A stretch of DNA of 64,000 nt from Botryllus schlosseri (GCA_051294905.1 CM119371.1:31064001-31128000), one strand, 5' to 3'. Shown: positions 20,988-42,819, counted from the first letter of the stretch. A program made the numbers and translations. Notes: generated by a model from the sequence alone, not told the origin.

Positions 20988-21143
20988 GTCTATATAGATT
21001 ACTTATCTACCCATAGGTTAGTTATCTATAGTAATCTAGAGTCTGTCAGCCGTCGGTAATATCCGATGTAGGAACGAAGACATAGGTGCCGCCGTGCCGG
21101 CTTGTGACGGCATAATTAATACTTGTCAATTGTCGATAACACC

Positions 21144-23401
21144 ATAGTGTCCTATATGGTGTCGACACAAGCAAATCGCACGGTTCAATGAAATTGTATC
21201 ACGTCACAGTTTCCATTTGGCTACAGGCAATTTGACGGTGATTTTTGACCGGCTTGCCGAGCATTAAATTTGATGAATTGGGTATCAATCGAAAGCTGAC
21301 GCTGTACTGCCTTCGAAAATATAAATTTTATTCCACTCATGGCCCTGGAACCCTCACAATCAGCCCCAAATTATTCATTGTCGAGTAGATTGGCAGTGTG
21401 ACGCAACAATGCTGTCTGGCGAAACGAGACACTAGCTCAAGAGCAAGGATGCGGCCGAGCGGCGAGAGTGGGATCAGCTGACGTCGCGGCAATAGCAATG
21501 TGCAACCGCGCCACAGAGAAACGCTGCGCTGTTGTTACTTTTTCTATGTGCTTCGGTACAAGCGAGCACACACCAGCCTTTCCTCGACTTGTCAACGTTT
21601 ATAGTGATATCAGATATATTCCAGTGAAAAACAAAGGTATGAATTTGGTGGTAACATTTTGGAATCATTTGGCAGGTATGGCCCGCAAGCTTTCTAGTTA
21701 CGGATTGAATCCGGACAGCGATACCAGTTGATTCGACACTCCTGCTGTTAAACTTTATTCAACAATCAACATTTTACCTGCTGCATTCGCGGACTAAGTC
21801 CTACCGATACGGATAAAATAAAAGCTTGTAATGTATGCTCATTAGGGCTGTTCAAAAATAACTTTTTTTTCCTGATTCCAGCCATTCACTGATTAAATTG
21901 TCAGGTTGCCACAACAAAGGCTGCACACCAAATTTGGTTCAATTCGAACATGTCTAAGCGTCCGCAGAGCCAATTAAAATTTTTAAGATGCTACGTAAAA
22001 TTGAAAAAAAAAATTTCAAATTTTTCTCTCAACCCCATGAAAATGTTGAGATGTCTTCAAAGACCATGCAAATGAAATTTGAGTCAATTCCAACCAGTAG
22101 AAACGGAGTTATTTGACTTTTTCGTTGATAATTCTCGGATTATCCACGAATCAAGGATAATTGGAGAATTATCAACGAAAAACTCCAATAACTCCACTTC
22201 TACTAGTCCGAATTGAGTCAAATTTTATTTGCATCGTCTCTGAAGACAGCTCAACAATTTCATGGGGTTGACAGAAAAATTTGAAAAATTTTTTTTTTCA
22301 ATTTTCCTGTATAAATTAAAAATTTTAATTGGATCCGCGGAGCCCTATACTTGTTAGAATTGAACCAAATTTGGTGTGCAGCGTTTTTTAAGGTAACCTG
22401 ACGATTTAATCACTGAATGGCTGGAATCCGGAAAAAAAAGTTATTTTTGAACAGCCCTAATGCTCATGCTCAATGCTCCTTGCTCACACTTAACCATAAA
22501 AGCGACTATAGAAAGTATCGACACCCACCATCAACAGCGCCACGCATCTCTGGAGCCCTGCGCAACAAGCGGGCTAAGGCAATCGATATCATAATAATCC
22601 GACATATCTAATGTAGACTACTTAACGTAGCCTACATATCTCTATCAGCTGAAGGATATTGCACGAAAATTGGTAGGGCCCTAATACATTCTGTGGACCC
22701 AGTTCTACCCTTACAAGTCAAGGAAAGGCTGGTGTGTGCTCGCTTTTAGCGAAGCGCCTATAGAAAGTATCAACAGCGCCACGCATCTCTGGAGCCCTAC
22801 GCAACAAGCGGTCTAAGGCAATCGATATCATAATAATCTGACATATTTAATGTAGACTACTTAGACGTAGCCTACATATCTCTATCAGCTGAAGGATATT
22901 GCACGAAAATTGGTAGGGCCCTAATACATTCTGTGGACCTAGTTCTACCCTTACAAGTCAAGGAAAGGCTTGTGTGTGCTCGCTTGTACCGAAGCACATA
23001 GAAAAAGTATCAACAGCGCAGCGTTTCTCTGTGGCGCGGTTGCACATTGCTATTGCCACGACGTCAGCTGATCCTACTCTCGCCGCTCGGCCGCATCCTT
23101 GCTCTTGAGCTAGTCTCTCGTTTCGCCAGACAACATTGTTGCGTCATACTGCCAATCTACTCGACAATGAATAATTTGGGGCTGATTGTGGGGGTTCCAG
23201 GGCCACGAGTGGAATAAAATTTATATTTTCGCAAGCAGTACAGCGTCAGCTTTCGATTGATACCCAATTCATCAAATTTAATGCTCGGCAAGCCGGTCAA
23301 AAATCACCGTCAAATTGCCTGTAGCCAAAAGGAAACTGTGACGTGATACAATTTCATTGAACCGTGCGATTTGCTTGTGTCGACACCATATAGGACACTA
23401 T
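21144..23401. mobile_element. Long-TIR (~450 bp) non-autonomous DNA element, MULE-like or P-like
   Basis: 21144-~21590 is a near-perfect inverted copy of ~22953-23401. TSD is 9 bp GATAACACC, or 7 bp ATAACAC if the ends are CATAG/CTATG. Internal ~240-bp tandem duplication at ~22507-23015. Confidence 0.88.
21843..22459. mobile_element. Fully palindromic (fold-back) MITE
   Basis: TAGGGCTGTTCAAAAATAAC / GTTATTTTTGAACAGCCCTA; arms pair imperfectly to the centre at ~22150; exact TSD ATGCTCAT. Confidence 0.92.
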
Positions 23402-25587
23402 GATAACACCATAATTGCACTAAAACGCACTTCACTCTCCATGCCATTGCTGTGCACAGCATTAAAATTCAGGCCTGCTGTTCAATTATGATAAATTAGC
23501 AGATGTGGTTGTTGCATATATAATAGCATCTTATGAAATACGTCGAGCCGGAGCTATTCCCCAAAAAACGGGCTCCAGCTCCGGCTCCGGCTGAATCTCA
23601 TGTAGAGCTCTGGCTGCGGCTCCAGCTCCGGTTAAAATGCACGGCTCCGGGGATCCGGGCTCCGGCTCCAAAGTCCTGATTGTCAAGGTTCATGATCGTT
23701 TAATGAGGATTTGTGTATGCTGCCAGTGCCATGTACAGAGTGGCCCGCAGTTGAAATGCAACACATTTTAACCAAAGATGTTAGAATGAAGTGAAAATAG
23801 TTATATATGAAAAAGGTTCACAGTGCAGAACCTACCAAGGTTCGTGTGTGAACGTGAACCTCTAAATATCAGAGGCTCACACACAGAACGCGAACGTGAA
23901 CCTCACGCTCACACCATCCCTAGCTTGCAGAGAGTTTCTACCATGAAAGTGAAATTTTTATCTGAATATATTGACATACTTTATTTATCATCCAATCAAT
24001 CCAAGTTTGCCAACCCCAGAAAGATGGTCATGAAACTACTTGTTCTGTTCGGTTCTACAGGCCAACTCATTTCCAAGCAGATATTTCCGACCATCAAGAT
24101 TCATGAGAGAAGACTGCGTTCCGATATAACTAATGTTCCCGTGTATGCTATACTAATGGTTTCTAAATCCGACAGACAGCCGGGCTTTAAAAACTTGTCG
24201 ACTACTTTGACCGACCACCAATGTCTGATTGACCTCAACAGCTGTCGAAGTAGGCTACATTAGTTTGATAAATATAATATATACTTTTATTGGCCTCTAT
24301 GGTTCAAAATTTATATTAAAAGCGATTTAGTCCTTATAAAGGTGGATAAATACGCTATGTATCGATTATTTATTTCCGCTCGTCAACTACTTAGGTTTCC
24401 AATATCATTTAAAATGCGCCTTTACCACTGTTGCTACAGTGTCTGCTGATAGGTACTGTCTGCCTGTCACGCCGTAAACGCTAACTGAGCACACGCTTTT
24501 CAAATGCGATGAAGTATCAGGATGGTAACCAAATCAACAGTATCTTTATATGATGGTCGAGTAATTGATCAACACACGTTTCTGTCCGTAGTTAACCAAC
24601 AGTTATTTGATATCCAACGAACATTCGGTACTATAATAAGTATCGGTGAACGACCAAGCATTTTTTCTGCCAGGACTTCCGTCGAAACGGAATACCACGG
24701 CCCTCATGAGTTAGTCTTCTTCGTTTTGTTATATTCTGCAAGATCTCATGAATAAGTCAAATATTTGAAAAAGGTTTAACAATTTTTTTTTCATGGCTCT
24801 AATTCTTATTGCATCATTTATAGTGTTGACAAACGTTACATTAACGTCGACCCGAAACTATGTAGCATGCTATTTAGGTAAGACTATCCCATTAAGTAGC
24901 AACGATATTTCAAAACTCTCAAGTCGAAGCTAATGTCAAACTAGATAAAACTTATCAAAAAAGGTTGATGCGGTCAGTAATGTTACATGGGTGGATTAAA
25001 ACAGTATTGTTACCTATTCGATATATATTCCCATACCTATTCCCATATAAACGCCTGACGATTAAATGTTGGAGACCGCAGTCAGTGCTCATAACTTAGG
25101 CCTTTAGAATATTATCAACAATAGCCCGATAGTGCGGGTTCACGCGTAGCTTTTTCATCGAAGCAGCAAGCTTATTTTCTCCCTTCTGCGTGACACTGAG
25201 CAGCATTTGTGAGGCGTTGAGGAATATTTAATGATGCAGCAACTACGGATTCCAGCGAGATAGCGAAGTGGTGTAATCCATCGCCACAGCACTGATGGGT
25301 TGCGATTACGAGCCCGACCGAAGTCGACTCCAGAATTTCAAACCAAAGTGATTGAGTTTGTACAAGCTTTTCCTCGCCACCACATCATTGTAAGCGGTGT
25401 CCTACGACAGACTAATAAGTGGTCCTTCCTACAGGTAGGGCTTTGGAGCCGGATCCCCGGAACCGTGCATTTTCACAAGAGCAATACCAAAAGCCGTAGC
25501 TCTACATGAAATTCATTTGGAGCCCGAGCCGTAGCGGGATCCAGTTATTCAATCTTTCCTCCTTGTCGCTATCTTTTCCGTCTGGCC

Positions 25588-27440: not shown

Positions 27441-30400
27441 CAGAGCTCCGGAGCATCCGTAAATTTGCATTGCTCCAGCTCCGACTCCGGAGCTTTCTTC
27501 TATCATACATCAGCTCCGGCTCCAGCTCCGGAGCCCCATTATTACCACTGCTTCAGCTCCAGTTCCGGCTCCGGCTCTGAAAACTATCGAATGTGTCTGT
27601 CTTTATCAGGGGTGAGCAACCCACGGAATGCGAGCCATATGTGGCCCGCGAAAAGGTTTTGAGTGGACCGCGAGCTAATTTCCCATTTCATTATCGAAAT
27701 TATGTTTATCGAAATTGAATTGCTCAGTTTGTGAACTTGCAAGGCCAACCAAAAATATGATTAGTCTGGTCGCGACACTTGGGATGTTGACAGTGTTGGG
27801 ATCAAGTCACTACCTTCGAGTCACGAGTCATTTCGAGTCATTGCACATTTTGACTCGAGTCAAGTCAAGTCAATCGATTTTCGAAAGTGACTCGAGTCAA
27901 GTCAAGTCACTCGATTTTTGGAGTTGACTCGAGTCAAGTCGAGTCAAGTCAAGTCAAGTCACGAGTCAAGTCACAATTCAAGTCAAGTTGGCTTTTCGAA
28001 GTATGAGGCATGATTTTGTCATTTCAGTTTGCTGGCTGTCTGTAATACATATTGAGTGGTCATTGATTCTGAACCAATAAACGAATATAGAGTTAAATAT
28101 ACACGCAAGAAGACGCTGTATCGCTCACATATACCTAGAACTGCTAAACTACGTAAGTAATTGCATAGCCTCAGTTTATAGTTACCAGCCAAAATAGAGA
28201 ATAGAGAAACGAATTGATAAGATGCACTTTACAAACATTCGAGCCTGCGCCAATGGTTGATTACTATATAAACTATTTTCGAATTCAATTTCAATCAACC
28301 AAGAGGTTTATTTAAGGTAAGAACAGAAAACAGAAATATACATTTTACTATTAAATAACTTTACTATACTAGTTTACGACATCGTAAGATATAAGCTTCG
28401 ATCACTTCGTTTGCGGTTAATTTATTTGAGAAAGAACAATGAAGGCACAGTGAAACGCAAGATCATTGAATGCTTAGTCGCTTTCGCGGGTTACACGAGC
28501 GTTTCGCGAGCAATACGGCCATATGCAAGATACAATGATTTTTATCGACACCGATTACTTGATGACTTGAAATTTACTCGTGAATTTTGCTCCGAGTCAC
28601 GAGTCAATCCACATTTTTGATACGCCGAGTCAAGTCAAGTCAAGTCATTTTAGCAAATTGACTCGAGTCAAGTCAAGTCATACGAAAAAGGTGACTCGAG
28701 TCTGACTCGAGTCAAGTCATGACTCGAGTCGTCCCAACACTGGATGTTGATGACTAACATATCAGTTCCGACGCATTGACAGATCCAGGGACCAGTCACA
28801 TTTTTAGTAAATCTTCGTACATTACAATAAACTAAAAAAGTAGTAACAATTTTCGTTACGCTTCGCGTATTTAATTGTCACACGATTTTCTTGCTTTGTA
28901 GCCTAACCCTACCTGAAAAGGAAAAAGAAAGTCTTTTCGCGTTTTCGCTCGCAGAAAGATCGTCGACGATGAAAGGCATAAAGTGATTGTCGTATATTAG
29001 CAGAAATCTTCGATATCGATATGTCCAGATGCCGAATAGTCCTGTCCTTGAAAACTGAGGCAAGCGGTCGATATACAGTCCACCAGTAATATACCCTAGT
29101 AATAATAATATTACCTTTGAAAATGGTACACGCCTGTCGCGGCTAGTGGGCAGCGCACTCGTTCGTCAATTTCATGTGGCTCTTTAGCCGAAAAAATTGA
29201 CCACCTCTGATCTATATAGATTACTAATTTACCCGTAGGATAGATATCTATGGCAATCTGGAGTGTGTCAGGCGTCAGTAACATCGGATGCAGCAATGAA
29301 GACATAGGTGCTGCCGTGCCGTATTGGTCAATTGTCGAAAACATATCATAGTTGCGCTAGAACGCACTTTACTCGGCGGCATTGCTGTGTATACAGCAAT
29401 AAAATTCTGATGCGGCATTTTAACACTGGCACTGTGCTCGTTAACATTAAGCCATACAGCTCAATTCAATCTTTAAATGTGCGATTATTATTCAACTGTA
29501 ACTGTAGTAAAAGCTATATGGGCGGTTATCACGGCGAGATCAATGGAAATTCGATTTGTAACAAATGGCCAATGGTTTGACGTTAGATATTGGTGCACTC
29601 GTTACCAGTCCATCCGGTGTCGATCAAATTTATCGGAATATATTATTTTCCCGTTGATACGAGTCGAATAATCGAATTAAACACTGTGCCATGCACGTTG
29701 CGCCATGCCCATAACGAATTACACTATGCAGTATGCACAATTGCACATTGCATATTTACAAATCACAGTGCGCGATAATCCGAGAATACTAGATTATATC
29801 AAGCTGACATCGAGAATGAATTTATGAAACAGATGATTACAAATTGAAAATCGCGTATCAAATCAGTAATTTGTCTCCAACATAAAATACCATGGGGTCG
29901 TGACTCCTGACATCGCATTGAGTAGCTCGCACTGCGACAATTGTTGGGCTACTCTCCTGCCATCCCCTATTTACGCTCGAAAATCCTTACTCATTTCCGG
30001 GGTGAATGCCTATCGTGCCTCATGCGCAGCGATGAATTCAAGTTATCATACATAATTGCATACTCAATAACACTTTCCAATTTCGCGGCCCGATTAAGGA
30101 ACTAACACGGAAGAACGAGTATTTGCTCACCCGATTAATTCATTAATAGTATCGATGAGATGAAATTTCTCGGCTCGTGCTCGTCAGATCGACATGTGTA
30201 ACGAAATCACGTTTATATCCTCTTCCATTTCGTGTGATACATAGTGATCATTAGTTTCGAACCGTACAATCGGCCAAAAAGGTAGTGCTGAAGATGAAAT
30301 TGCGGGTATGCCGAATACCCACAATATTCACAGGTATATTTCGCATACATCGAGGTTCGGCACTCATGTATGGAAATTGAACATTGTATATATGACTGCT

Positions 30401-31670: not shown

Positions 31671-32900
31671 CACTGGTCTACAAATTTCGAAAAAAAAAAT
31701 TGCGCTAAAAATTTTAACGATTGATTTAGGCTAATTTAAGGTCGCTGAATCCGATTTTGTGCTCAGAATTTCTCTATCACGTCAGATTTATTAGGTATGT
31801 ATTTTTCTGATTTTCATAAATTAATCAAATTTCGGCTTCCGTTATTAATATTACGGTGAGCACACAACAGCAACAGATAAAACATTGTTATTTAACTAAT
31901 CTATAATAATGAAACCTGGATAGTTGTAGAACAGAATAAGTGAGTTTTCGGTGAGCTTGAAACCAACGGTTTTCTATCTTCTTTCAATAAGGAACTCTTT
32001 TCGACCCATAAATTCGTACGTGGATGCAACTATTTTTATTCGGTAGCAGTTATCATCTTTATATACCACTCGTCATTTAAATATTGTGATTAGTAGCTCC
32101 GTGCCTAATTTAGTTCCTTACGTTATCCATCTTTGAACATCTGCCCTGCAAACCAAATCAATCAATGCATTTTGTTAAAGCAGACTGCTCTTTCGTAAAA
32201 TTTTGCTAATAATAAACATTGTATTGTTGGTATATTATAAAAAAAGTGAATTGTTCATTCCGGCACATAACCCGAATATGTGGCCCTTCATGCTTGTTTT
32301 GATACATCAGAAGAAACGGGATTGGTGCTTTACCAAAGAAAATAGTGCTTGAAAGAATTTATCGCTAAGAATCTTCGCCTGTACTCATTATGCTAATTCT
32401 TTTTCTGCAGTTTCCATAAGCTGTCACATTTTGTCGGAATCGGGGAAGGCTGATTCTAAACTTTTCTTTCCTCTTTGGTTTATTACCATGAGATAAAAGG
32501 CCTATTTTTCATTGTCCATTAGAGACAGACAACCAGATGAAGGTAGAATTTTTACTAACATATCAACACGAAGCCTGAAGTGCGTGTTACTTCCCAAAAA
32601 AATATTTTTCATCGGTTGTAGGACAGTCAATCCGTTTCGACGTAGGACATACTGTGTCCCAAACCATAAATTGAGTTTTCTATGCCGTAACAAAGACAGA
32701 GATGAGCATTAGTTAATATCCGGTGATGTTTTTATATGGTTCCTAGGCTTTCTGTTAGGGTTTTACATGATCAAACGCCAGTTCTAATCCACAAAGCTTT
32801 GCAATTTTGACGGTTTCTGACATACCGTAAAATTTTACTTTGAACTAGAGTTGATCGAAGTGATCGGCGTTGCTATTCTAATAAAGCCTTACATCTCTAC
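31671..32900 (+). pseudogene. Highly decayed Chapaev3-like DNA transposon fragment
   Basis: TTA|CACTGG terminus; RIFTNISTRSLKCVLL and DEH*LISGD resemble the FIDSSKRSLKAVLL...EHQWKICGDLK motif of this transposase group (recalled, not searched). Confidence 0.45.
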
Positions 32901-33737
32901 TCAATTACAATTAAAAGTAGTAATTTCTAAGACATGTAAAAACTACTTCAAGGGGAAGACGAAACGAAAGGTCTGATAATTACTAAAATTCATTAAATAA
33001 CGAAGTATATTGGTCGAGGGTAGGGTGGCCGCATACTTTCAACAGTTAGTCGGAAATGGCTACATACGGAATCGCAGGACGTATCAGTAGTATGAGTAAT
33101 GTGCGGAATCCCCCCAGTCGCGATTTATAACCAACAAACAAAGATTATCAAGATAATAAGTAATTAAAGATTTACCTCATTATCAATTTTGCAGCAATAC
33201 TTTTATGATCCTGTGTGCGGCAATCAAAAAGGGGGATTAACGCTAGAGAGAAAAAGAACAAAGAATCCCGATTGACATTTGTACTCTGGCCAGACACGAA
33301 ACTTGGGATTTATTATATTAAACTGTAATTTTACTGTATTTTTCCACGATCCACAGCTGACTTCGTACACGACGGTGATAATAGTTGCATGGCCTGGCCT
33401 GTTGTTGCGTGGTCCAATTTCGTGGCTTGGGAGCAATAGCCCGTCAAACTGGTTGATTTGTCGTTCCGCGGTTGATTCAATTTCGTGTACGGTGGCTCAT
33501 ATGAATAATTGTCGGTCGTGACATCAGTATAGTTTTCTTCTGATCCATGAGATCCTGGTGCCTGTTTTATGAGTCAATACGTTTGGCTGTGTATAGTGAA
33601 GCTTGTGTCCTGTCTCATACTTGTCCACCTTTTGCTTTTTTGTTGCCTTAAATAGTAAAGAGAAATGATCTGCTAATTGTTATAAATATGTGTGTTATTT
33701 CGAGTCATATCGAGAACCAGAAAGAATGACGTGTATT

Positions 33738-34003
33738 CAGAGGTGGTCAGTAACGAAGTACTTCTACTTTTTGAAGTACTTGAAGTAGATTTTGCCTACT
33801 CGAACTACTTTTTAAGTAGTTATGATTTTAGACTACTTCTACTTCTACTTGACAGTTTTCAGTTTTGTAGGCAAAAATAAGCGTAGAATGCCTACTTACT
33901 TACTTACTTGTGAACCAGCACTCCTACTTCTACTTGAGTAGAAATCCCGGCGTTACTTCTACTTCTACTTGAGTAGCGACGGTGACTATTTTGACCACCT
34001 CTG
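33738..34003. mobile_element. hAT-type MITE with CTACTT repeats, left arm only
   Basis: CAGAGGTGGTCA / TGACCACCTCTG; exact TSD CGTGTATT; empty site in the right arm at ~41761-41790. Confidence 0.95.
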
Positions 34004-34869
34004 CGTGTATTAGAAATGTGTATTAGTCGCCCCCGACATAGATTAACTTAAATAAAGTAACATTGTGAATATAATAAGTAATTTAAAGAAATAGCTGATT
34101 CTCAATGTGGCTTACATCAATGTGTTAATTTCCGATATTACGTACCTAGTAATTGGTGCAAGCAACAACTGCTGTTCCACACCTTTACCGCTTTCTAGCG
34201 TCTTAGGATAGACAGTCCTAACCAAACAATGTATTTATGAAGGGTTCTTGTACTGCTTCACGTCTGGTCAAGCGTAATCATGCCGGTGTCTGTAAATGAT
34301 ATACAATTTACCGCGGCATATTATTTTTGTATGCTGTACATGATGTACAACTTGAATCGATCAGGTGGCGAACTAATGCTTTACCCGTCTGTACGATATA
34401 TATCGATCGCGAGCTCACCACGCACTTGTCGTTGGAGAGCGACTAATTTCGCTATAGACAATCAGTTGTGTTCGCGTGTACCGTAACATATCCTCAACAC
34501 TTGTTATACCAACACCTCCACGCATATTTACAATATCATACTAAGGATATATTGCTTCGGCAGCCACGCACTGTCGTTCGAATTCGACTAATTTCGCTGC
34601 AGACAATCAGTTGTGCTCGCGTGTGCCGTAAAATATCCTCAACACGTGTTATGCCAACACCTACAAAGCATATTTGCAGCATCATACTACGGATATATTA
34701 ATTCGGCGGAGTGTTACCGTCAGAGAATTGCTGTGTCACGCCTTCGAGCCTCGCATTTTCCGTTCGAACTCGGTAACTGCGATTACGATGTCAGATTCAG
34801 TTGTATAGTGACGAATCGGGATAGCTCGCTTCATCGGGGATCAGTGGGCTTACCTTATTTTGCTGAAAC

Positions 34870-36016
34870 AACTCGATCACACGACTGACGTTTCCGCAGA
34901 TCAATTTTTGGCGTTTGATCAACTCTTGTCTGGTTATGGGGTTTCTAATCACAGGACGATTGAGATTCGGGTGTGTCTTTTCGATACGTTGCGCAAACTC
35001 GATACCTTTCGTTCGGATTACGTATTCACACTGCGGAAAACATTTTGCATGTTCTGTCCAAACCTCGTCTTCACGGTCCCAACGAATCCCCCCGTCACAG
35101 TAAAAGCATTTGGTTCTGTCCGAATCGACGTAGTAAAACCCCGCTTTTGCCAACTGTTCAACACTAGCCTTAATTTTATTCGGTTCCCAGCCCTTGTCGA
35201 ACGTTGCGATTCTTTTTGACAACGACGACATGAGAGGATTCACGGGGTTAAGACAAGGAAATAGTTGCTCAAGACATCGCTTTTCGTCCTCGGTGGTTTC
35301 CCGTGGTTCTTGCAGATGTAGAGTGAGACGTCGTATTTTGTCGCCGAGCAAATTATCCAAATTGTCTCGTTCGTGCTCGGTTAGCGCCACATTCCCCGAA
35401 TCGTCGCCACGTGCGAAACAACAATCCGGGTGATACGGCAAGTGTATTTCAGATACATCGTCTGTAGGCCTCCAATTGCGGAGTACGCCGGAGCAGTTAA
35501 AGCACTGCGTTCTGTCCAGGTCACCGAGGTAGAATAAACCTTGTTTTGCCAACTCGCCGACCGCCCATGGTATGGGATAGCTGGGCCATTTCTCAAAGGT
35601 TTCGCGAAGCTTCGACTCCTTTCGTGCTCTTGATCAACGATATTCGCAAAGTTGATGTCGGCGTTTCCAACGGCTTTAAACTGTCTCAATAAACTTTTGA
35701 AATTCGATTTCACAATAGGTATGTTCAACGCGTCTCGTACACAATTCGCGTCATGACGCCGTGCACTCGAACCGGTCCATCGTTCGAGGTACACACTGCA
35801 CCCAAAGCATTTGATTTTGTCTTCAAACCCTAGCAAGTAGTATCCTTACGACGCTAAATCGATGCGTGTCGCGTATGCTACGTTGGAGAATTTGGCGAAC
35901 GTGGCGAGTCTGTACAATTCACTGCGGTGTCAACCGGAAGCGATACACGCGCGTTTCTGTCCGGGTGGATCAGAGTATCTCTCCATTGACGTTATGCCAA
36001 GCTCTTTCCTAAGCAT
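34870..36016 (-). pseudogene. Intronless inhibitor-of-apoptosis (IAP) pseudogene with three BIR domains
   Basis: BIR1 RLATF...KIKCFGC, BIR2 LAKQGLFYLG..DRTQCFNC...H..YHPDC, BIR3 RIATF...LAKAGFYY..DRTKCFYC...EHAKCFPQC. Stops at ~35931 and ~35847, frameshift near 35610. Confidence 0.93.
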
Positions 36017-38229
36017 GGAGTGCTAACACAGAGCTTTTGTGTCTAAACCTGCCCTATAGGTCAACCGAGTCGGCTCACACATATATTCCTAGTTTATCCT
36101 TGAGAGCTGTATAGATTACTGGTTTGCTGTACTTTTATGGCTGATTGACAACCGTTAGCTGTCGCTATTGCACCATTTACATATGTATTTACCAGGAGCG
36201 GGCAACTTTTGCAGTCAGCGGGGCGTGTATAGCATGGTACCTCGGCGGTGCGAATTGCTGAGTCGATATATTATTCGACCACCGATCAACATATACGAGG
36301 AATAAATCGTATTCAATGTATTTTAGCAATAGCAATGTCACTACAAAGCCGTTTTTCGTTGATAGTAACGAGGACAATGTGGATTTGAGAACGGTATTTT
36401 TATACAGGCACCGCCATGTCTGCTTCTTTTTAATCAATTAACACACGGTGAAATACTTAAATAAGATTTCATAGTGGTCTATAAGCTCGATACCCTAAAT
36501 TGACAGAGATATCAATTCATTAAAGTTGTTTTCTAACGATATTACAGACAACAATGCGTACCAGTAAACACACACCGAATTGTCACACTGTTGCGTCAAT
36601 TCCCCGACGACTCAGTATGAGACACTCTCGACCAACGAATGTACATTGGGCAACCGAAACAGGTGACCTTGCGTAGCGGGTATTTTCGATAACACCGATA
36701 CGGCAACTTTATACTGACAATGTGATGGAGAGCGGCTTAGTTCATCAGACAAAAACTGGAAGCAACAACGAGTAAAACACAAATCTAATGACCACACCGA
36801 CATTCACAGGTATTCGATAGACCTGATCATACCGAGGTCACCCAACTTTTGTATGGCACGGGTACGAAGCGGATACGAAGCATTTTGAACGGCTTTGCTC
36901 AGTCGTGGTTCTTGGCCTTCTAAGGCCTCTGTTAGCATCAGCCTATGTCACTGTTTGGAGTGCCATTGGCAAACGTCGCAATAGTGATCACTCGGTCATG
37001 TGTAGAATATAGAAATTGACGCCTGGCCTATTTGCACGACCTCATGACTTTGGTAAACTTACTAAAGCGGAAAGTCACAAAGTCACTGCCAAGTTGGACA
37101 TTGATTGATCGTTCTCTTGTTAGCGTCGATATTCGCTCGTACGCGCTTTCATGCCTTAGCATGTTTGTTATCATCGAGTGTGGTCATAAATAGACAGGGG
37201 GACAAATTTGATGAGGTCGTGCAAATAGGCCAGGCGTCAATTTCTATATTCTACACATTACCGAGTGATCACTATTGCGACGTTTACCATTGGCACTCCA
37301 AACAGTGAAATAGACTGATGCTAACAGAGGTCTTGGAAGGCCAAGAACCGCAACTGAGCAGCACCGTTCAAAATGCTTCGTACCCGTGCCATTACAGAAG
37401 TTGGGTGACCTCGGTATGATCGGGTCTATCGAATACCTGTGAATGTCGGTGTGGCCATTAGATTTGTGTTTTACTAGTTGTTGCTTCCAGTTTTTGTCTG
37501 ATGATCTAAGCCGCTCTCCATCACATTGTCAGTATAAAGTTGCCGTATCGGTGTTATCGAAAATACCCCGTACGCAAGGTCACCTGTCTCGGTTGCCCAA
37601 TGTACATTCGTTGGTCGAGAGTGTCTCATACTGAGTCGTCGGGGAATTGACGCAACAGTGTGACAATTGGGTGTGTGTTTACTGGTACGCATTGTTGTCT
37701 GTCATATCGTTAGAAAACAACTTTAATGAATTGATATCTCTGTCAATTTAGGGTATCGAGCTTATAGACCACTATGAAATCTTATTTAAGTATTTCACCG
37801 TGTGGTAATTGATTAAAGAGAAGCAGACATGGCGGTGCCTGTATAAAAATACCGTTCTCAAATCCACATTGTCCTCGTTACTATCAACGAAAAACGGCTT
37901 TGTAGTGACATTGCTATTGCTAAAATACATTGAATACGATTTATTCCTCGTATATGTTGATCGGTGGTCGAATAATGTATCGACTCAGCAATTCGCACCG
38001 CCGAGGTACCATGCTATACACGCCCCGCGGACTGCAAAAGTTGCCCGCTCCTGGTAAATACATATGTAAATGGTGCAATAGCGACAGCTAACGGTTGTCA
38101 ATCAGCCATAAAAGTACCGCTAACCAGTAATCAATACTGCTCTCCAGGAGAAACTAGGAATATACGTGTGAGCCGACTCGGTTGACCTATAGGGCAGGTT
38201 TAGACACAAAAGCTCTGTGTTAGCACTCC

Positions 38230-38922
38230 ATGCTTAGGAAAGAGCTTGGCATAGCGTCAATGAAGAGATACTCTGATCCACCCGGACAGAAACGCGCGTA
38301 TATCGCTTCCGGTTCACACCGCAGTGAATTGTACAGACTCGCCACGTTCGCCAAATTCTCTAAAGTATCATACGCGACACGCACCGATTTAGGGAATGTG
38401 GCGCTAACCGAGCACGAACGAGACAATTTGGATAAGTTGCTCGGCGACAAAATACGACGTCTCACTCTACATCTGCAAGAACCACGGGAAACCTCCGAGG
38501 ACGAAAAGCGATGTCTTGAGCAACTATTTCCTTGTCTTAACCCCGTGAATCCTCTCATGTCGTCGTTGTCAAAAAGAATCGCAACGTTCGACAAGGGCTG
38601 GGAACCGAATAAAATTAAGGCTAGTGTTGAACAGTTGGCAAAAGCGGGGTTTTACTACGTCGATTCGGACAGAACCAAATGCTTTTACTGTGACGGGGGG
38701 CTTCGCTGGGACCGTGAAGACGAGGTTTGGACAGAACATGCAAAAAGGTTTCCGCAGTGTGAATACGTAATCCGAACGAAAGGTATCGAGTTTGCGCAAC
38801 GTATCGAAAAGACACACCCGAATCTCAATCGTCCTGTGATTAGAAACCCCATAACCAGACAAAGAGTTGATCAAACGCCAAATATTGATCTGCGAAACGT
38901 TAGTCGTGTGATCGAGCTATGA
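38230..38922 (+). CDS. IAP copy in the right arm: open 230-aa frame with one intact BIR after an internal deletion (may be a pseudogene)
   Basis: ATG-to-TGA ORF; BIR1 N-terminus is fused to the BIR2-3 linker at ~38390; BIR3 keeps CFYC...EHAKRFPQC. Confidence 0.75.
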   Translation: MLRKELGIASMKRYSDPPGQKRAYIASGSHRSELYRLATFAKFSKVSYATRTDLGNVALTEHERDNLDKLLGDKIRRLTLHLQEPRETSEDEKRCLEQLFPCLNPVNPLMSSLSKRIATFDKGWEPNKIKASVEQLAKAGFYYVDSDRTKCFYCDGGLRWDREDEVWTEHAKRFPQCEYVIRTKGIEFAQRIEKTHPNLNRPVIRNPITRQRVDQTPNIDLRNVSRVIEL

Positions 38923-40387
38923 GTTAAATAGTGTCGATAAAACGATTGTAGTGTATCACCACCTTTTTGCGAAACTTGTGTAAGTGTGTCTTTTGTGCTG
39001 ATAACACTACCGAAAAATTAGAATGAATTTCGTGAATCGTAAAATTATTTGAGCAATAAGAAGATGACGGGGCCGCAGTGGCTTACTACGAGAGTCAGTC
39101 GGTGTGAATCAGCAGGCGCGTGGTCAGCTACGAAATACAGTCGCTATTTCTGAGGGACTCGAGTCAGTTTTGTTTACTATCACAGTTACCAACGTGCTTG
39201 TGCTCGACAGTTTTATGGGGACCTATTCTTTTATAATTGGGATTGAAAGCGATTTCACTGTACCGACATTTCTTCAAAACTACTTGAGTACTCCAAAGCT
39301 ATATTTTGTCCTTTCATTTGAAGTAAATTTAGCATGTGTTGTAAATGGCTCCATCTATCTCGATAACCTCGCTAGAATGAGTAGTTTCGTCTGGATCTGC
39401 AGTTCTCAGCACGTTGTGCATACACAGAGAGAGGGAATGCAGTGGCGACTTGCTCTAGTCGAGTAACGGGCGATGTCGATTTCACACGCATTCCAAAGTA
39501 CATCTTGTGAGAATGATGTACCACCACCCCGGCTATTCTAGCTACGACATTGGATCATTTGGCTGTACTAAGGTGGTATACCCCGACATGGTCGAGTGCG
39601 CTCGACCTTTTTCATGTAACGGTAGTTTGGGTCGCTTTTACTATTCACATGTTTACACAGGCCCCCGTATCCACGTAATAACCTGCACAATACAATCATA
39701 GCGTCATTTTTTCCGATTTGGCTACCTAAATACCCGAGTTCCGTAATCTAGGCCCGCATTTTGCGTTACTCGTGGTGTTTTTTTGGATATTTAAAGCTGA
39801 CAAGGAGGACAAATTGATAGAAAGAGAGTACATTTGGGCGAAGGGGTGACATATCTGGGAAATGGAGGACATATGCTCTCCTAAATGAGGCCGTATGGTA
39901 ACCCTATTAAATAGGAGGGTCGACGGGGACATCAAATGAATCGCATTGTGTTGCTGTCAACCAGAAAACTCGAGTTTTGTCAAACATGCGGATTGATGAC
40001 TGACATCAATTTTGTCACGCTCGATTGATCACAGCGGATTTGCGTACATCACACCACATCGAAATTACAAGTATTCGAACGACAAATTTGTTTGTTTGTT
40101 GGTAGGGTAAAGGTATTATCGTTTTGTGGTTGATAGGGCTTTGCTAATATACTTTTTATGGTGCTAACCTGATTGCACTAATAACACCTGTATAGTTGAA
40201 CATAATTCCGCCAATGGGTCGATACAAGGTTTCGCTGTACGCAAATGAATATGCAACGTCATCTCCATATCGTGTAAAGATAGTAGAACTATCGTGCCTG
40301 GAAGGGGGTGGAGGTCACTTAAACGTTTCCAGACCTCAAATTTCATCGGTTTAGCAAAGCCAGGGCTCGATACGGTCAAGTGTCCTG

Positions 40388-40960
40388 GAGAGTCAGATTT
40401 ATCCTCTAATTTGCGCTCGCTATATGTAGAAGTAACAGGACTTTACGTACCGGCCGTGGTTAACCCCAATTTGGCCCGCCAGAGTCGGGGGGCGGGGGGA
40501 TTCGGATTTCGAAATATCTCACTCATCTTTACACCTCACCGAAGGTAGACTAGATTGTATCACGTATGATCTGTCACAATTCATCCCCCATTATTACACC
40601 CCCGAAACCGAGCAAAATAAGGCCAGTCAGCTGATCGCCGGTGAAGCGAGCTATCGCCGGACTGGATGCAGCCAAATGGTCTTGAGAGTCGGATTTATGC
40701 TATATTTTGCCCTCACAACATGTGGAAATAACAGGACTTTACGTGCTAGCCGGATTTTTTGGACTTTGATTTGGCAACCCGAGTCGGGGTGGAGTCAGAT
40801 TTTGAAATCTTTCATTCATCTTTACACCTCACCGAAAGTAGGCTAGATTGCATCACGTATGATCTGACACAATTCATCCCCCATTATTGCACCACCGCAA
40901 CCGAGCGCGTTTCATCAAAATAAAGTAAGTCCATTAATCCCCGATGAAGCGAGCTATTCC
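40388..40960. repeat. ~297-bp tandem duplication inside the right arm
   Basis: gagagtc.gatttat, aacaggactttacgt and catctttacacctcaccgaa...cacaattcatcccccattatt recur in units starting at ~40388 and ~40685. Confidence 0.85.
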
Positions 40961-42819
40961 GATTCGTCACTATACAACTGAATCTGACATCGTAATCGCA
41001 GTTACCGAGTTCGAACGGAAAATGGAGGCTCGAAGGCGTGACACAGCAATTCTCTGACGGTAACACTCCGCCGAATTAATATATCCGTAGTATGATGCTG
41101 CAAATATGCTTGTAGGTGTTGGCATAACACGTGTTGAGGATATTTTACGGCACACGTGAGCACAACTGATTGTCTGCAGCGAAATTAGTCGAATTCGAAC
41201 GACAGTGCGTGGCTGCCGAAGCAATATATCCTTAGTATGATATTGTAAATATGCGTGGAGGTGTTGGTATAACAAGTGTTGAGGATATGTTACGGTACAC
41301 GGGAACACAACTGATTGTCTATAGCGAAATTAGTCGCTCTCCAACGACAAGTGCGTGGTGAGCTCGCGATCGATATATATCGTACAGACGGGTAAAGCAT
41401 TAGTTCGCCAACTGATCGATTCAAGTTGTACATCATGTACAGCATAGAGAAATAGTATACCGCGGTAAATTGTATATCATTTACAGACACCGGCATGGTT
41501 ACGCTTGACCAGACATGAAGCAGTAAAAGAACCCATCATAAATACGTTGTTTGGTTGGGACTGTCTGTCCTAAGACGCTAGAAAGCGGCAAAGGTGTGGA
41601 ACAGCAGTTGTTGCTTGCACCAATTACTAGGTACGTAATATCGGAAATTAACACATTGATGTAAGCCACATTGAGAATCAGCTATTTCTTTAAATTACTT
41701 ATTATATTCACAATGTTACTTTAATTAGGTTAATCTGTGTCGGGGGCGCCTAATACACATTTCTAATACACGTCATTCTTTCTGGTTCTCGATATGACTC
41801 GAAATAACACACATATTTATAACAATTAGCAGATCATTTCTCCTTACTATTTAAGGCAGCAAAAAAGCAAAAGGTGGACAAGTATGAGACAGGTCACAAG
41901 CTTCACTATACACAGCCAAACGTATTGACTCATAAAACACGCACCAGGATCTCATGGATCAGAAGAAAACTATACTGATGTCACGACCGACAATTATTCC
42001 TATGAGCAACCGTACACGAAATTGAATCAACCGCGGAATGACAAGTCAACCAGGGTGGTTTGACGGGCTATTGTCCCCAAGCCTCATCACGAAATTGGAC
42101 CACGGAACAACAGGCCAGGCCATGCAACTATTATCACCGTCGTGTACGACCGATGTCAGCTGTGGATCGTGGAAAAATACAGTAAAATTACAGTGTAATA
42201 TAATAAATCCCAAGTTTCGTGTCTGGCCAGAGTACAAAGTTCAATCGGGATTCTTTGTTCTTTTTATCTCTAGCGTTAATTATTTTCTCTCTAGCGGTAA
42301 TTATTCCCCCTTTTTGATTGCCGCACACATGGTCATAAAAGTATTGCTGCAAAATTGAGAATGAGGTAAATCTTTAATTACTTATTATATTGATAATCTT
42401 TGTTTGTTTATTATAAATCGCGAATGAGGGGATTCCGCACATTACTCATACTACTCGTATCCTCTCGGCTAACGCGATATGTCTATAATGACCCTACCCA
42501 TTGGTAGAATCTAGGAAAATATATTCAGTTACCGCGCTTTAGGGGCTGTGCCACGCAGTTTTAATGAGCATATAACTCATGAGAATGGTGCCGTGTTTTC
42601 TGTATTACCAGTCGATATTCGCTGCGCGCAACCAATATTTAACCGACGTCCTGCAAATACTCGACAGTTCTTTATCCCATCGCAAAAAAAGACTTCGGCA
42701 CGCACTGCGATCCATCCACAGACGGAAATTCGTGGTATCTACACGCCGAGCCTGGATAGATATACACAATCTTGACAAGTAGCCTATACTCGACCAGCAC
42801 CATTTTACGGCGCTGCATG

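Follow-up and report, generated by a model that had tools for sequence, protein, structure and literature searches.

A decayed giant-inverted-repeat element with Polinton-type ends and damaged IAP cargo in Botryllus schlosseri, and the family to which it belongs

The window analyzed here is a 64,000-nucleotide stretch of Botryllus schlosseri DNA (GCA_051294905.1 CM119371.1:31064001-31128000), and positions given without a contig name are counted from its first letter. Window positions 33086-42455 are a mobile-DNA insertion bounded by AGTAGT ... ACTACT (Table 1). Its left terminus, at 33086, reads AGTAGTATGAGTAATGTGCGG, the reverse complement of this sequence closes the element at 42455, and the two 28-nucleotide termini have no mismatches to one another. 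The element is flanked on both sides by the sequence CGTATC, a 6-bp target-site duplication (TSD); the chance of such a 6-bp flank match is 1/4096, and this value, together with the perfect 6-bp duplications found at 10 of the 12 end pairs of its relatives (see below), excludes chance as its source. Because the insertion flanks lack a paralogue among the sequences compared, they reveal no empty site. Scans with Rfam and for tRNA genes gave no match between positions 32000 and 43500.

Nearly the whole element consists of two inverted arms with a 165-bp spacer between them. Self-comparison resolves four inverted blocks, 33086-33741 / 42455-41762 (90.9% identical with gaps), 34004-34869 / 41772-40909 (96.9%), 34872-35403 / 38916-38385 (97.7%), and 35854-37045 / 38392-37211 (95.6%), and the overall arm-to-arm identity is 95.28% over 3287 aligned positions. 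A first-pass annotation, made from the sequence alone, had described the AGTAGT...ACTACT ends, the CGTATC duplication, the inverted arms, and the 165-bp spacer; direct reading and the inverted alignments confirm all of these, and the self-comparison that it proposed as a check recovers the four blocks and three large indels. The left arm is collinear with the arms of C3:14029485-14043806, C14:16769745-16784755, and other relatives.

Table 1. Features of the palindromic element at window positions 33086-42455 and of its target-site duplications
Feature	Position	Strand	Basis and remarks
Left target-site duplication, CGTATC	33080..33085	.	Read directly; same as 42456-42461
Left terminus, starts (AGT)2	33086..33113	+	28-mer equal at both ends
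Left arm; its innermost 165 bp (37046-37210) are unpaired	33086..37210	+	Inverted alignments; collinear with relatives' arms
Insertion of a miniature inverted-repeat transposable element (MITE), 262 bp, left arm only	33742..34003	.	Own inverted ends GGTGGTCA...TGACCACC; duplicated target around GTGTATT.AGA
145-bp tandem repeat, 1.8 copies	34440..34707	.	Mirror copy 41070-41358
Left IAP copy, broken	34869..36022	-	tblastn with P0001, open reading frame list, Pfam, alignment
Polinton-homologous patch	36369..36471	+	L047:3478-3580, 78.6% identity; mirror copy 37775-37877; blastn and tblastn
Spacer, 165 bp, apparent inner end of left arm with right-arm partner gone	37046..37210	.	Aligns as arm continuation in C3:14034938-14035342
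Right arm	37211..42455	-	Inverted alignments and relatives
Right IAP copy	38224..38919	+	Open, 232 aa; open reading frame list, Pfam, alignment, tblastn
Arm segment of 1992 bp, right arm only (deleted from left)	38917..40908	.	Judged against relatives
Right terminus, ends (ACT)2	42428..42455	-	Equals left 28-mer, reverse-complemented
Right target-site duplication, CGTATC	42456..42461	.	Read directly

Each arm carries sequence from an inhibitor of apoptosis (IAP) gene, and comparison with the intact protein of the family (P0001, taken from a relative on contig C14; 394 aa with three BIR stretches) reveals the state of the two copies. In the left copy, which is broken, residues 1-134 and 143-394 of P0001 lie in different frames (the shift falls between BIR1 and BIR2), and upstream the frame closes at 35846; the open reading frame (ORF) at 34797-35633 nevertheless matches Pfam BIR (PF00653) in two stretches with E=3.9e-36. 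The right copy has suffered an in-frame internal loss of ~150 codons, from the second half of BIR1 through BIR2, and retains BIR3 alone (one BIR stretch, E=9.7e-20). Thus the earlier assignment of IAP genes to the element holds, since BIR coding sequence is present in both arms, but both copies are damaged.

The best named homologues of P0001 are ascidian IAPs. It aligns to a 574-aa Styela clava IAP that has a RING domain, with 44% identity over 96% of the query, and proteins of Phallusia and Ciona match it as well. These closest cellular homologues (BIRC7-like, with three BIR domains and a C-terminal RING E3 domain) resemble the cargo through the three BIR domains, but the cargo ends after BIR3 and lacks the RING; Pfam detects none in P0001, and a regular expression for C3HC4 matched nowhere in the six reading frames of 11 elements. 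Because P0001 is collinear with the 574-aa ascidian IAP through BIR3, where the alignment stops, the cargo is read as a truncated copy of an IAP of the host lineage. Viral contigs (IMG/VR) searched with the intact IAP yielded no relative. Anti-apoptotic accessory genes, homologues of both Bcl2 and IAP, have been reported from adintoviruses in excerpted text of one study (PMC8502044).

The genome, searched as a 495-Mb eukaryotic assembly, contains 78 close matches to this IAP (84-100% identity), which are arranged as -/+ pairs; in 56 of them the frame is open for 376 aa or more. Among five IAP copies the 10 pairwise dN/dS values are 0.16-0.61, and such values indicate that the gene has been under purifying selection while the lineages diverged. 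One sub-lineage of the family, the window copy included, carries in each arm a RING-less, three-BIR IAP gene that would be transcribed outward. Two more distant sets of IAP genes were also seen. The members of the first are 69-74% identical to the window IAP, have 407-aa open frames, and form +/- pairs whose two genes are 0.6-1.6 kb apart (for example, C5:23993858-23996873 and C4:18247434-18249464), an arrangement suggestive of a further palindromic element in which the IAPs lie close to the center; those of the second are single ORFs of 566-583 aa and are 53-57% identical.

The element has many relatives. A genome search with its first 300 bp gave 352 candidates, of which the best 40 were scored; these often lie as +/- pairs. 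A degenerate 19-nucleotide terminal motif has 295 genome matches versus 54 for a reversed control. The first 100 of the 295 were listed, and the readings of pairs rest on those. At least 29 +/- pairs with identical 19-mers occur among the matches listed, spaced 9.4-22.7 kb apart (median ~15 kb, mostly 13-17 kb), and the window pair is the shortest of them. Relatives from nine further contigs were compared. Perfect 6-bp duplications flank 10 of 12 of their end pairs, each of a different sequence; the exceptions are a pair on C14 that agrees at 4 of 6 TSD positions and the pair C1:38578842-38588384. This last pair, 9.5 kb apart and with the same 19-mer as the window element, was considered as a sister copy and rejected, as it is a rearranged relative with no TSD.

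All 10 of the relatives measured have inverted arms, which are 99.21-100% identical over 2.8-6.7 kb aligned in one to three blocks, and different elements are only 81-91% identical to one another. Their centers are 92-2608 bp long except in one copy with a center swollen to 15 kb, in which an ORF of 1902 aa lies; this is read as a putative nested retroelement. A 1.5-kb center is conserved at 91-97.6% in four relatives and is absent from the window copy. A gene search of the relatives' centers found overlapping short ORFs only, none of them kept open across copies, and the arms have no ORF besides the IAP that is open across relatives. The layout of the family is thus two arms of 4-7 kb around a center of 0.1-2.6 kb, with a total that is typically 13-17 kb, and the giant arms are inherited, being common to the family, which is on the order of a hundred elements of that size. 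A unit with AGT-repeat ends has integrated repeatedly with 6-bp duplications, its arms near-identical within each copy and the copies diverging from one another. IAP matches on different contigs have identical bit scores and the arms are near-identical, which suggests recent activity of other members. Two arrangements of family ends stand apart from simple pairs. Same-strand termini at C3:30407499, 30420413, and 30433327 (+) are exactly 12,914 bp apart and are followed by one at 30447350 (-), which looks like a tandem array; and C2:28650613-28682016 encloses C2:28655129-28669241, where the differing terminal 19-mers imply that one element was inserted into another.

Against this background the window copy is an old, decayed member of the family, a fossil. 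Its arms have diverged by 4.7%, compared with at most 0.8% in ten relatives, and it is therefore the oldest of the copies examined. The MITE in its left arm is missing from the right arm and from every relative aligned. Judged against the relatives, the 1992-bp segment of the right arm was deleted from the left (no ORF of at least 50 aa in it matches a Pfam family), and 450 bp kept in the left arm at 35404-35853 were deleted from the right. The relatives' arms continue inward ~0.6 kb beyond the window junction before their center begins, so the window copy lacks the inner arm ends as well as the whole center. By these alignments the 165-bp spacer appears to be left-arm sequence whose right-arm partner was removed, and the near-total palindrome would most simply have arisen by internal deletion in an already palindromic element. 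Simple arithmetic on the missing pieces puts the original element at ~13-14 kb, like the rest of the family.

The type of the ends can be judged from Polintons (also called Mavericks) that reside in the same genome. The reference Polinton, C1:5923771-5942033, is 18,263 bp long and lies on the same contig, 25 Mb upstream of the window. It has AGTAGT ends (AGTAGTGTAGTAG...), terminal inverted repeats of 0.44-0.8 kb, and a GCCGAG TSD on both sides, and it encodes a protein-primed polymerase (pPolB) ORF of >950 aa, an integrase with rve and chromo domains (L047:8014-9090, rve E=2.7e-16), and an ATPase. The window itself includes a paralogous empty site of this Polinton at 28560-28711, where a single GCCGAG (28610-28640) is uninterrupted; the site adjoins a (GTCAA)n-like repeat and matches the Polinton's two flanks at 93-96%. 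A pPolB protein query gave 402 genome candidates, and 43 of the best 48, which were scored, have no internal stop; potential helpers are therefore abundant. Copies of the outer ~0.9 kb of the Polinton right end are also arranged as -/+ inverted pairs that are separated by 9.6-15 kb and enclose no listed pPolB (for example, C8:24179433/24190558, C9:649017/660059, and C11:2339934/2351851), and 13 single copies adjoin a listed pPolB; the pairs point to further pPolB-less derivatives with true Polinton ends. One ORF in the Polinton end (L046:4567-4977) looked Bcl-2-like by eye, had no Pfam match, and is not claimed as such.

The family shares with the reference Polinton the (AGT)2 end motif, the first 6-9 terminal nucleotides (AGTAGTAT(A/G) versus AGTAGT(G/A)TAG), the 6-bp duplication, and, beyond the ends, one internal patch. 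Across the family this patch is 100-157 bp long and 74-86% identical to the Polinton and has the same orientation relative to the end as it has there; it is present in all 10 relatives with data and reaches 85.7% identity over 126 bp in a C9 member. Its Pfam result is a weak sub-threshold match to DUF7505 only. When all reference-Polinton ORFs of at least 70 aa were compared with the element by tblastn, only the 77-aa ORF of the patch matched, and Pfam searches of the element (53 ORF references, 8 + 45, with five ORFs counted twice) gave BIR as the sole family above threshold. No pPolB, integrase, capsid, ATPase, or protease was thus recognized in the element by Pfam or by reference-Polinton tblastn, in agreement with the first-pass annotation. 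The pPolB ORFs of the resident Polinton have no tblastn match in the window or in 44 family loci, and its rve integrase has none in the element; a PF03175 profile search of the genome found no match, but it found none in controls either and is uninformative, given the hundreds of pPolB genes recovered by the protein query.

According to excerpted text, Mavericks are recognized in vertebrates by (AGT)2/(ACT)2 or (AG)3 end motifs together with a perfect 6-bp TSD, and intact vertebrate Mavericks have terminal inverted repeats of 46-1447 bp (PMC8097293), and all Polintons by definition encode pPolB and integrase (PMC5499653, likewise in excerpt). The window element resembles the Maverick/Polinton group (polintoviruses, adintoviruses) in its end motif, its perfect 6-bp TSD, and its terminal inverted repeats. 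It differs from that group in having no pPolB, integrase, capsid, ATPase, or protease, and in that the inverted repeats of its family are arms of 4-7 kb that make up nearly the whole element. Because the ends and TSD are those of a Maverick and the defining genes are absent, it is filed as a non-autonomous element that acts like a pair of Polinton ends and not as a Polinton proper.

It seems likely, then, that the window element is an old and decayed member of a multi-copy, non-autonomous, giant-inverted-repeat family with Polinton-type ends, which has an IAP gene in one sub-lineage and is moved in trans by resident Polintons. Since the family encodes no enzymes, we infer that integration (as had been proposed earlier for a cargo-only unit) and probably replication are supplied in trans; that the resident Polintons are the suppliers is plausible, though unproven. 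Their rve-chromo integrase would integrate the family members, generating the 6-bp duplication as it does so, and replication would be started on the AGT-repeat ends by their protein-primed polymerase. Arm identity might be renewed in each cycle through hairpin or panhandle intermediates, or it might be kept by gene conversion. One lineage would have captured an IAP gene from the host lineage. The window copy, once inserted, would have lost its center together with 2 kb from the left arm and, from the right arm, stretches of 165 bp and 450 bp, gained the MITE, accumulated the 4.7% divergence between its arms, and had both IAP copies disabled.

Several observations weigh against parts of this explanation. 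The IAP gene is not universal; among the 11 elements examined, 5 carry it in both arms, two have only remnants (a partial copy in C12b and a weak 54-residue match in C13b), and C3b, C3c, and C8 have no IAP match (C13a lies outside that set). The backbone is for this reason read as a gene-less foldback, with the IAP a later capture or repeatedly lost. The link to Polintons consists of 6-9 terminal nucleotides, TSD length, and one short patch. No family-type end pair was seen enclosing a pPolB among the matches listed, as is expected of a non-autonomous family, and of the 17 listed pPolB places on contigs C1-C5, not one falls within a listed family pair; this coordinate cross-check covers the best 48 of 402 pPolB candidates and 100 of 295 termini. 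Some larger members of 20-23 kb, such as the 22.7-kb C1:38038584-38061309, are outside those inspected, and one of them could hold core genes or a different transposase. Finally, two young relatives also have tiny centers, of 92 and 418 bp, so the center of the window copy could have been lost either before or after insertion.

An extension of this explanation, which we consider rather unlikely, makes the family a helper-dependent satellite of the resident Polinton virus, with a genome that is an obligate hairpin. In each round of protein-primed replication one arm would be remade from its partner, and arms renewed in this way would explain why the arms are 99.2-100% identical within a copy when different copies differ by 9-19%. 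Packaging in the helper's capsid would hold the size at 13-17 kb, near the 18.3 kb of the helper, and the patch that is shared with the helper would act in cis, for instance as a packaging site or promoter. The host IAP would have been captured, shorn of its RING, and kept by purifying selection to keep the co-infected cell alive.

It is unlikely that the family belongs instead to some other superfamily of foldback elements, mobilized by a DDE transposase that is encoded elsewhere in the genome, and that its likeness to Polinton ends is a coincidence. Giant arms without genes are a hallmark of foldbacks; the backbone is gene-less in many members, and the termini share just 6-9 nucleotides with those of resident Polintons. 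The family is also like the foldback transposons (Drosophila FB, Galileo) in that very long, nearly non-coding arms form most of the element, copies are many, and centers vary. Its TSD length and end motif, on the other hand, are Polinton-like: the combination of (AGT)2/(ACT)2 with a perfect 6-bp TSD is a Maverick criterion, both features occur in a pPolB- and integrase-bearing element of the same genome, which supports the assignment of the ends to the Maverick/Polinton type by the first-pass annotation, and every arm examined includes the Polinton-homologous patch. The target-site duplications of Drosophila FB are 9 bp long and those of P-type Galileo 7 bp, compared with 6 bp here. FB-like arms are built of tandem subrepeats, whereas in this family unique sequence makes up most of each arm, which has a single 145-bp x2 tandem, and one sub-lineage carries a selected, host-derived gene.

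The first-pass annotation had proposed that the window molecule itself arose when one Maverick end was copied back on itself, giving a defective or satellite genome that was inserted once by a helper integrase. The resemblance to copy-back or snap-back defective genomes, of which adenovirus incomplete particles are an example, lies in the linear molecule with two identical ends (an arm and its complement) and in helper dependence; the Polinton-type termini and TSD, the lack of core genes, and the asymmetric junction, where the left arm is 165 bp longer than the right as a template switch would leave it, all fit such an origin. Such genomes are sporadic by-products, however, and here the palindromic layout is common to all 10 relatives measured, each with kilobase-long inverted arms, in a heritable, diversified, and chromosomally integrated family. 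The relatives' arms extend past the window junction and enclose a conserved center, so that a deletion in an existing palindrome suffices; among the matches listed, just one further 9.5-kb pair has this 19-mer, and it is the rearranged relative without a TSD described above and not a sister copy; and no Maverick with this arm sequence beside core genes was found among the matches listed. The search with the terminal 300 bp that had been suggested as a check did find other palindromic copies with different TSDs, but it yielded no autonomous Maverick with the same terminal sequence among the matches listed. Origin of the window molecule by copying back is accordingly very improbable, and a snap-back or arm replacement in the ancestor of the family is possible.

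That the palindrome is an assembly artefact or a local chromosomal inverted duplication is barely credible: chimeric long reads can produce palindromes, but these arms differ by 4.7% and three large indels, the TSD is perfect (the earlier argument against inverted duplication after insertion), and hundreds of related ends lie on many contigs in pairs with TSDs of their own.

Polintons are regarded as viruses with a second life as transposons, and non-autonomous parasites of them are hardly described; full-text literature searches found none. Neither that literature nor the excerpted text of PMC5499653 and PMC6431247 describes giant-armed, pPolB-less elements with Polinton ends. This analysis contributes the IAP cargo and its selection, a direct comparison of the family with an autonomous Polinton that resides alongside it, and the recognition of the window copy as a decayed member. 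The family would be a tractable case for how protein-primed replicons generate and keep long inverted ends, and it could address whether Polinton capsids carry satellites and how host anti-apoptosis genes are captured and spread.

Elsewhere in the window, positions 21143-23402 form another inverted-repeat structure, with arms of 450 nucleotides that are 97% identical (21143-21592 / 22953-23402) and, further in, a second pair (21835-22029 / 22273-22467); the structure may be a small foldback element.

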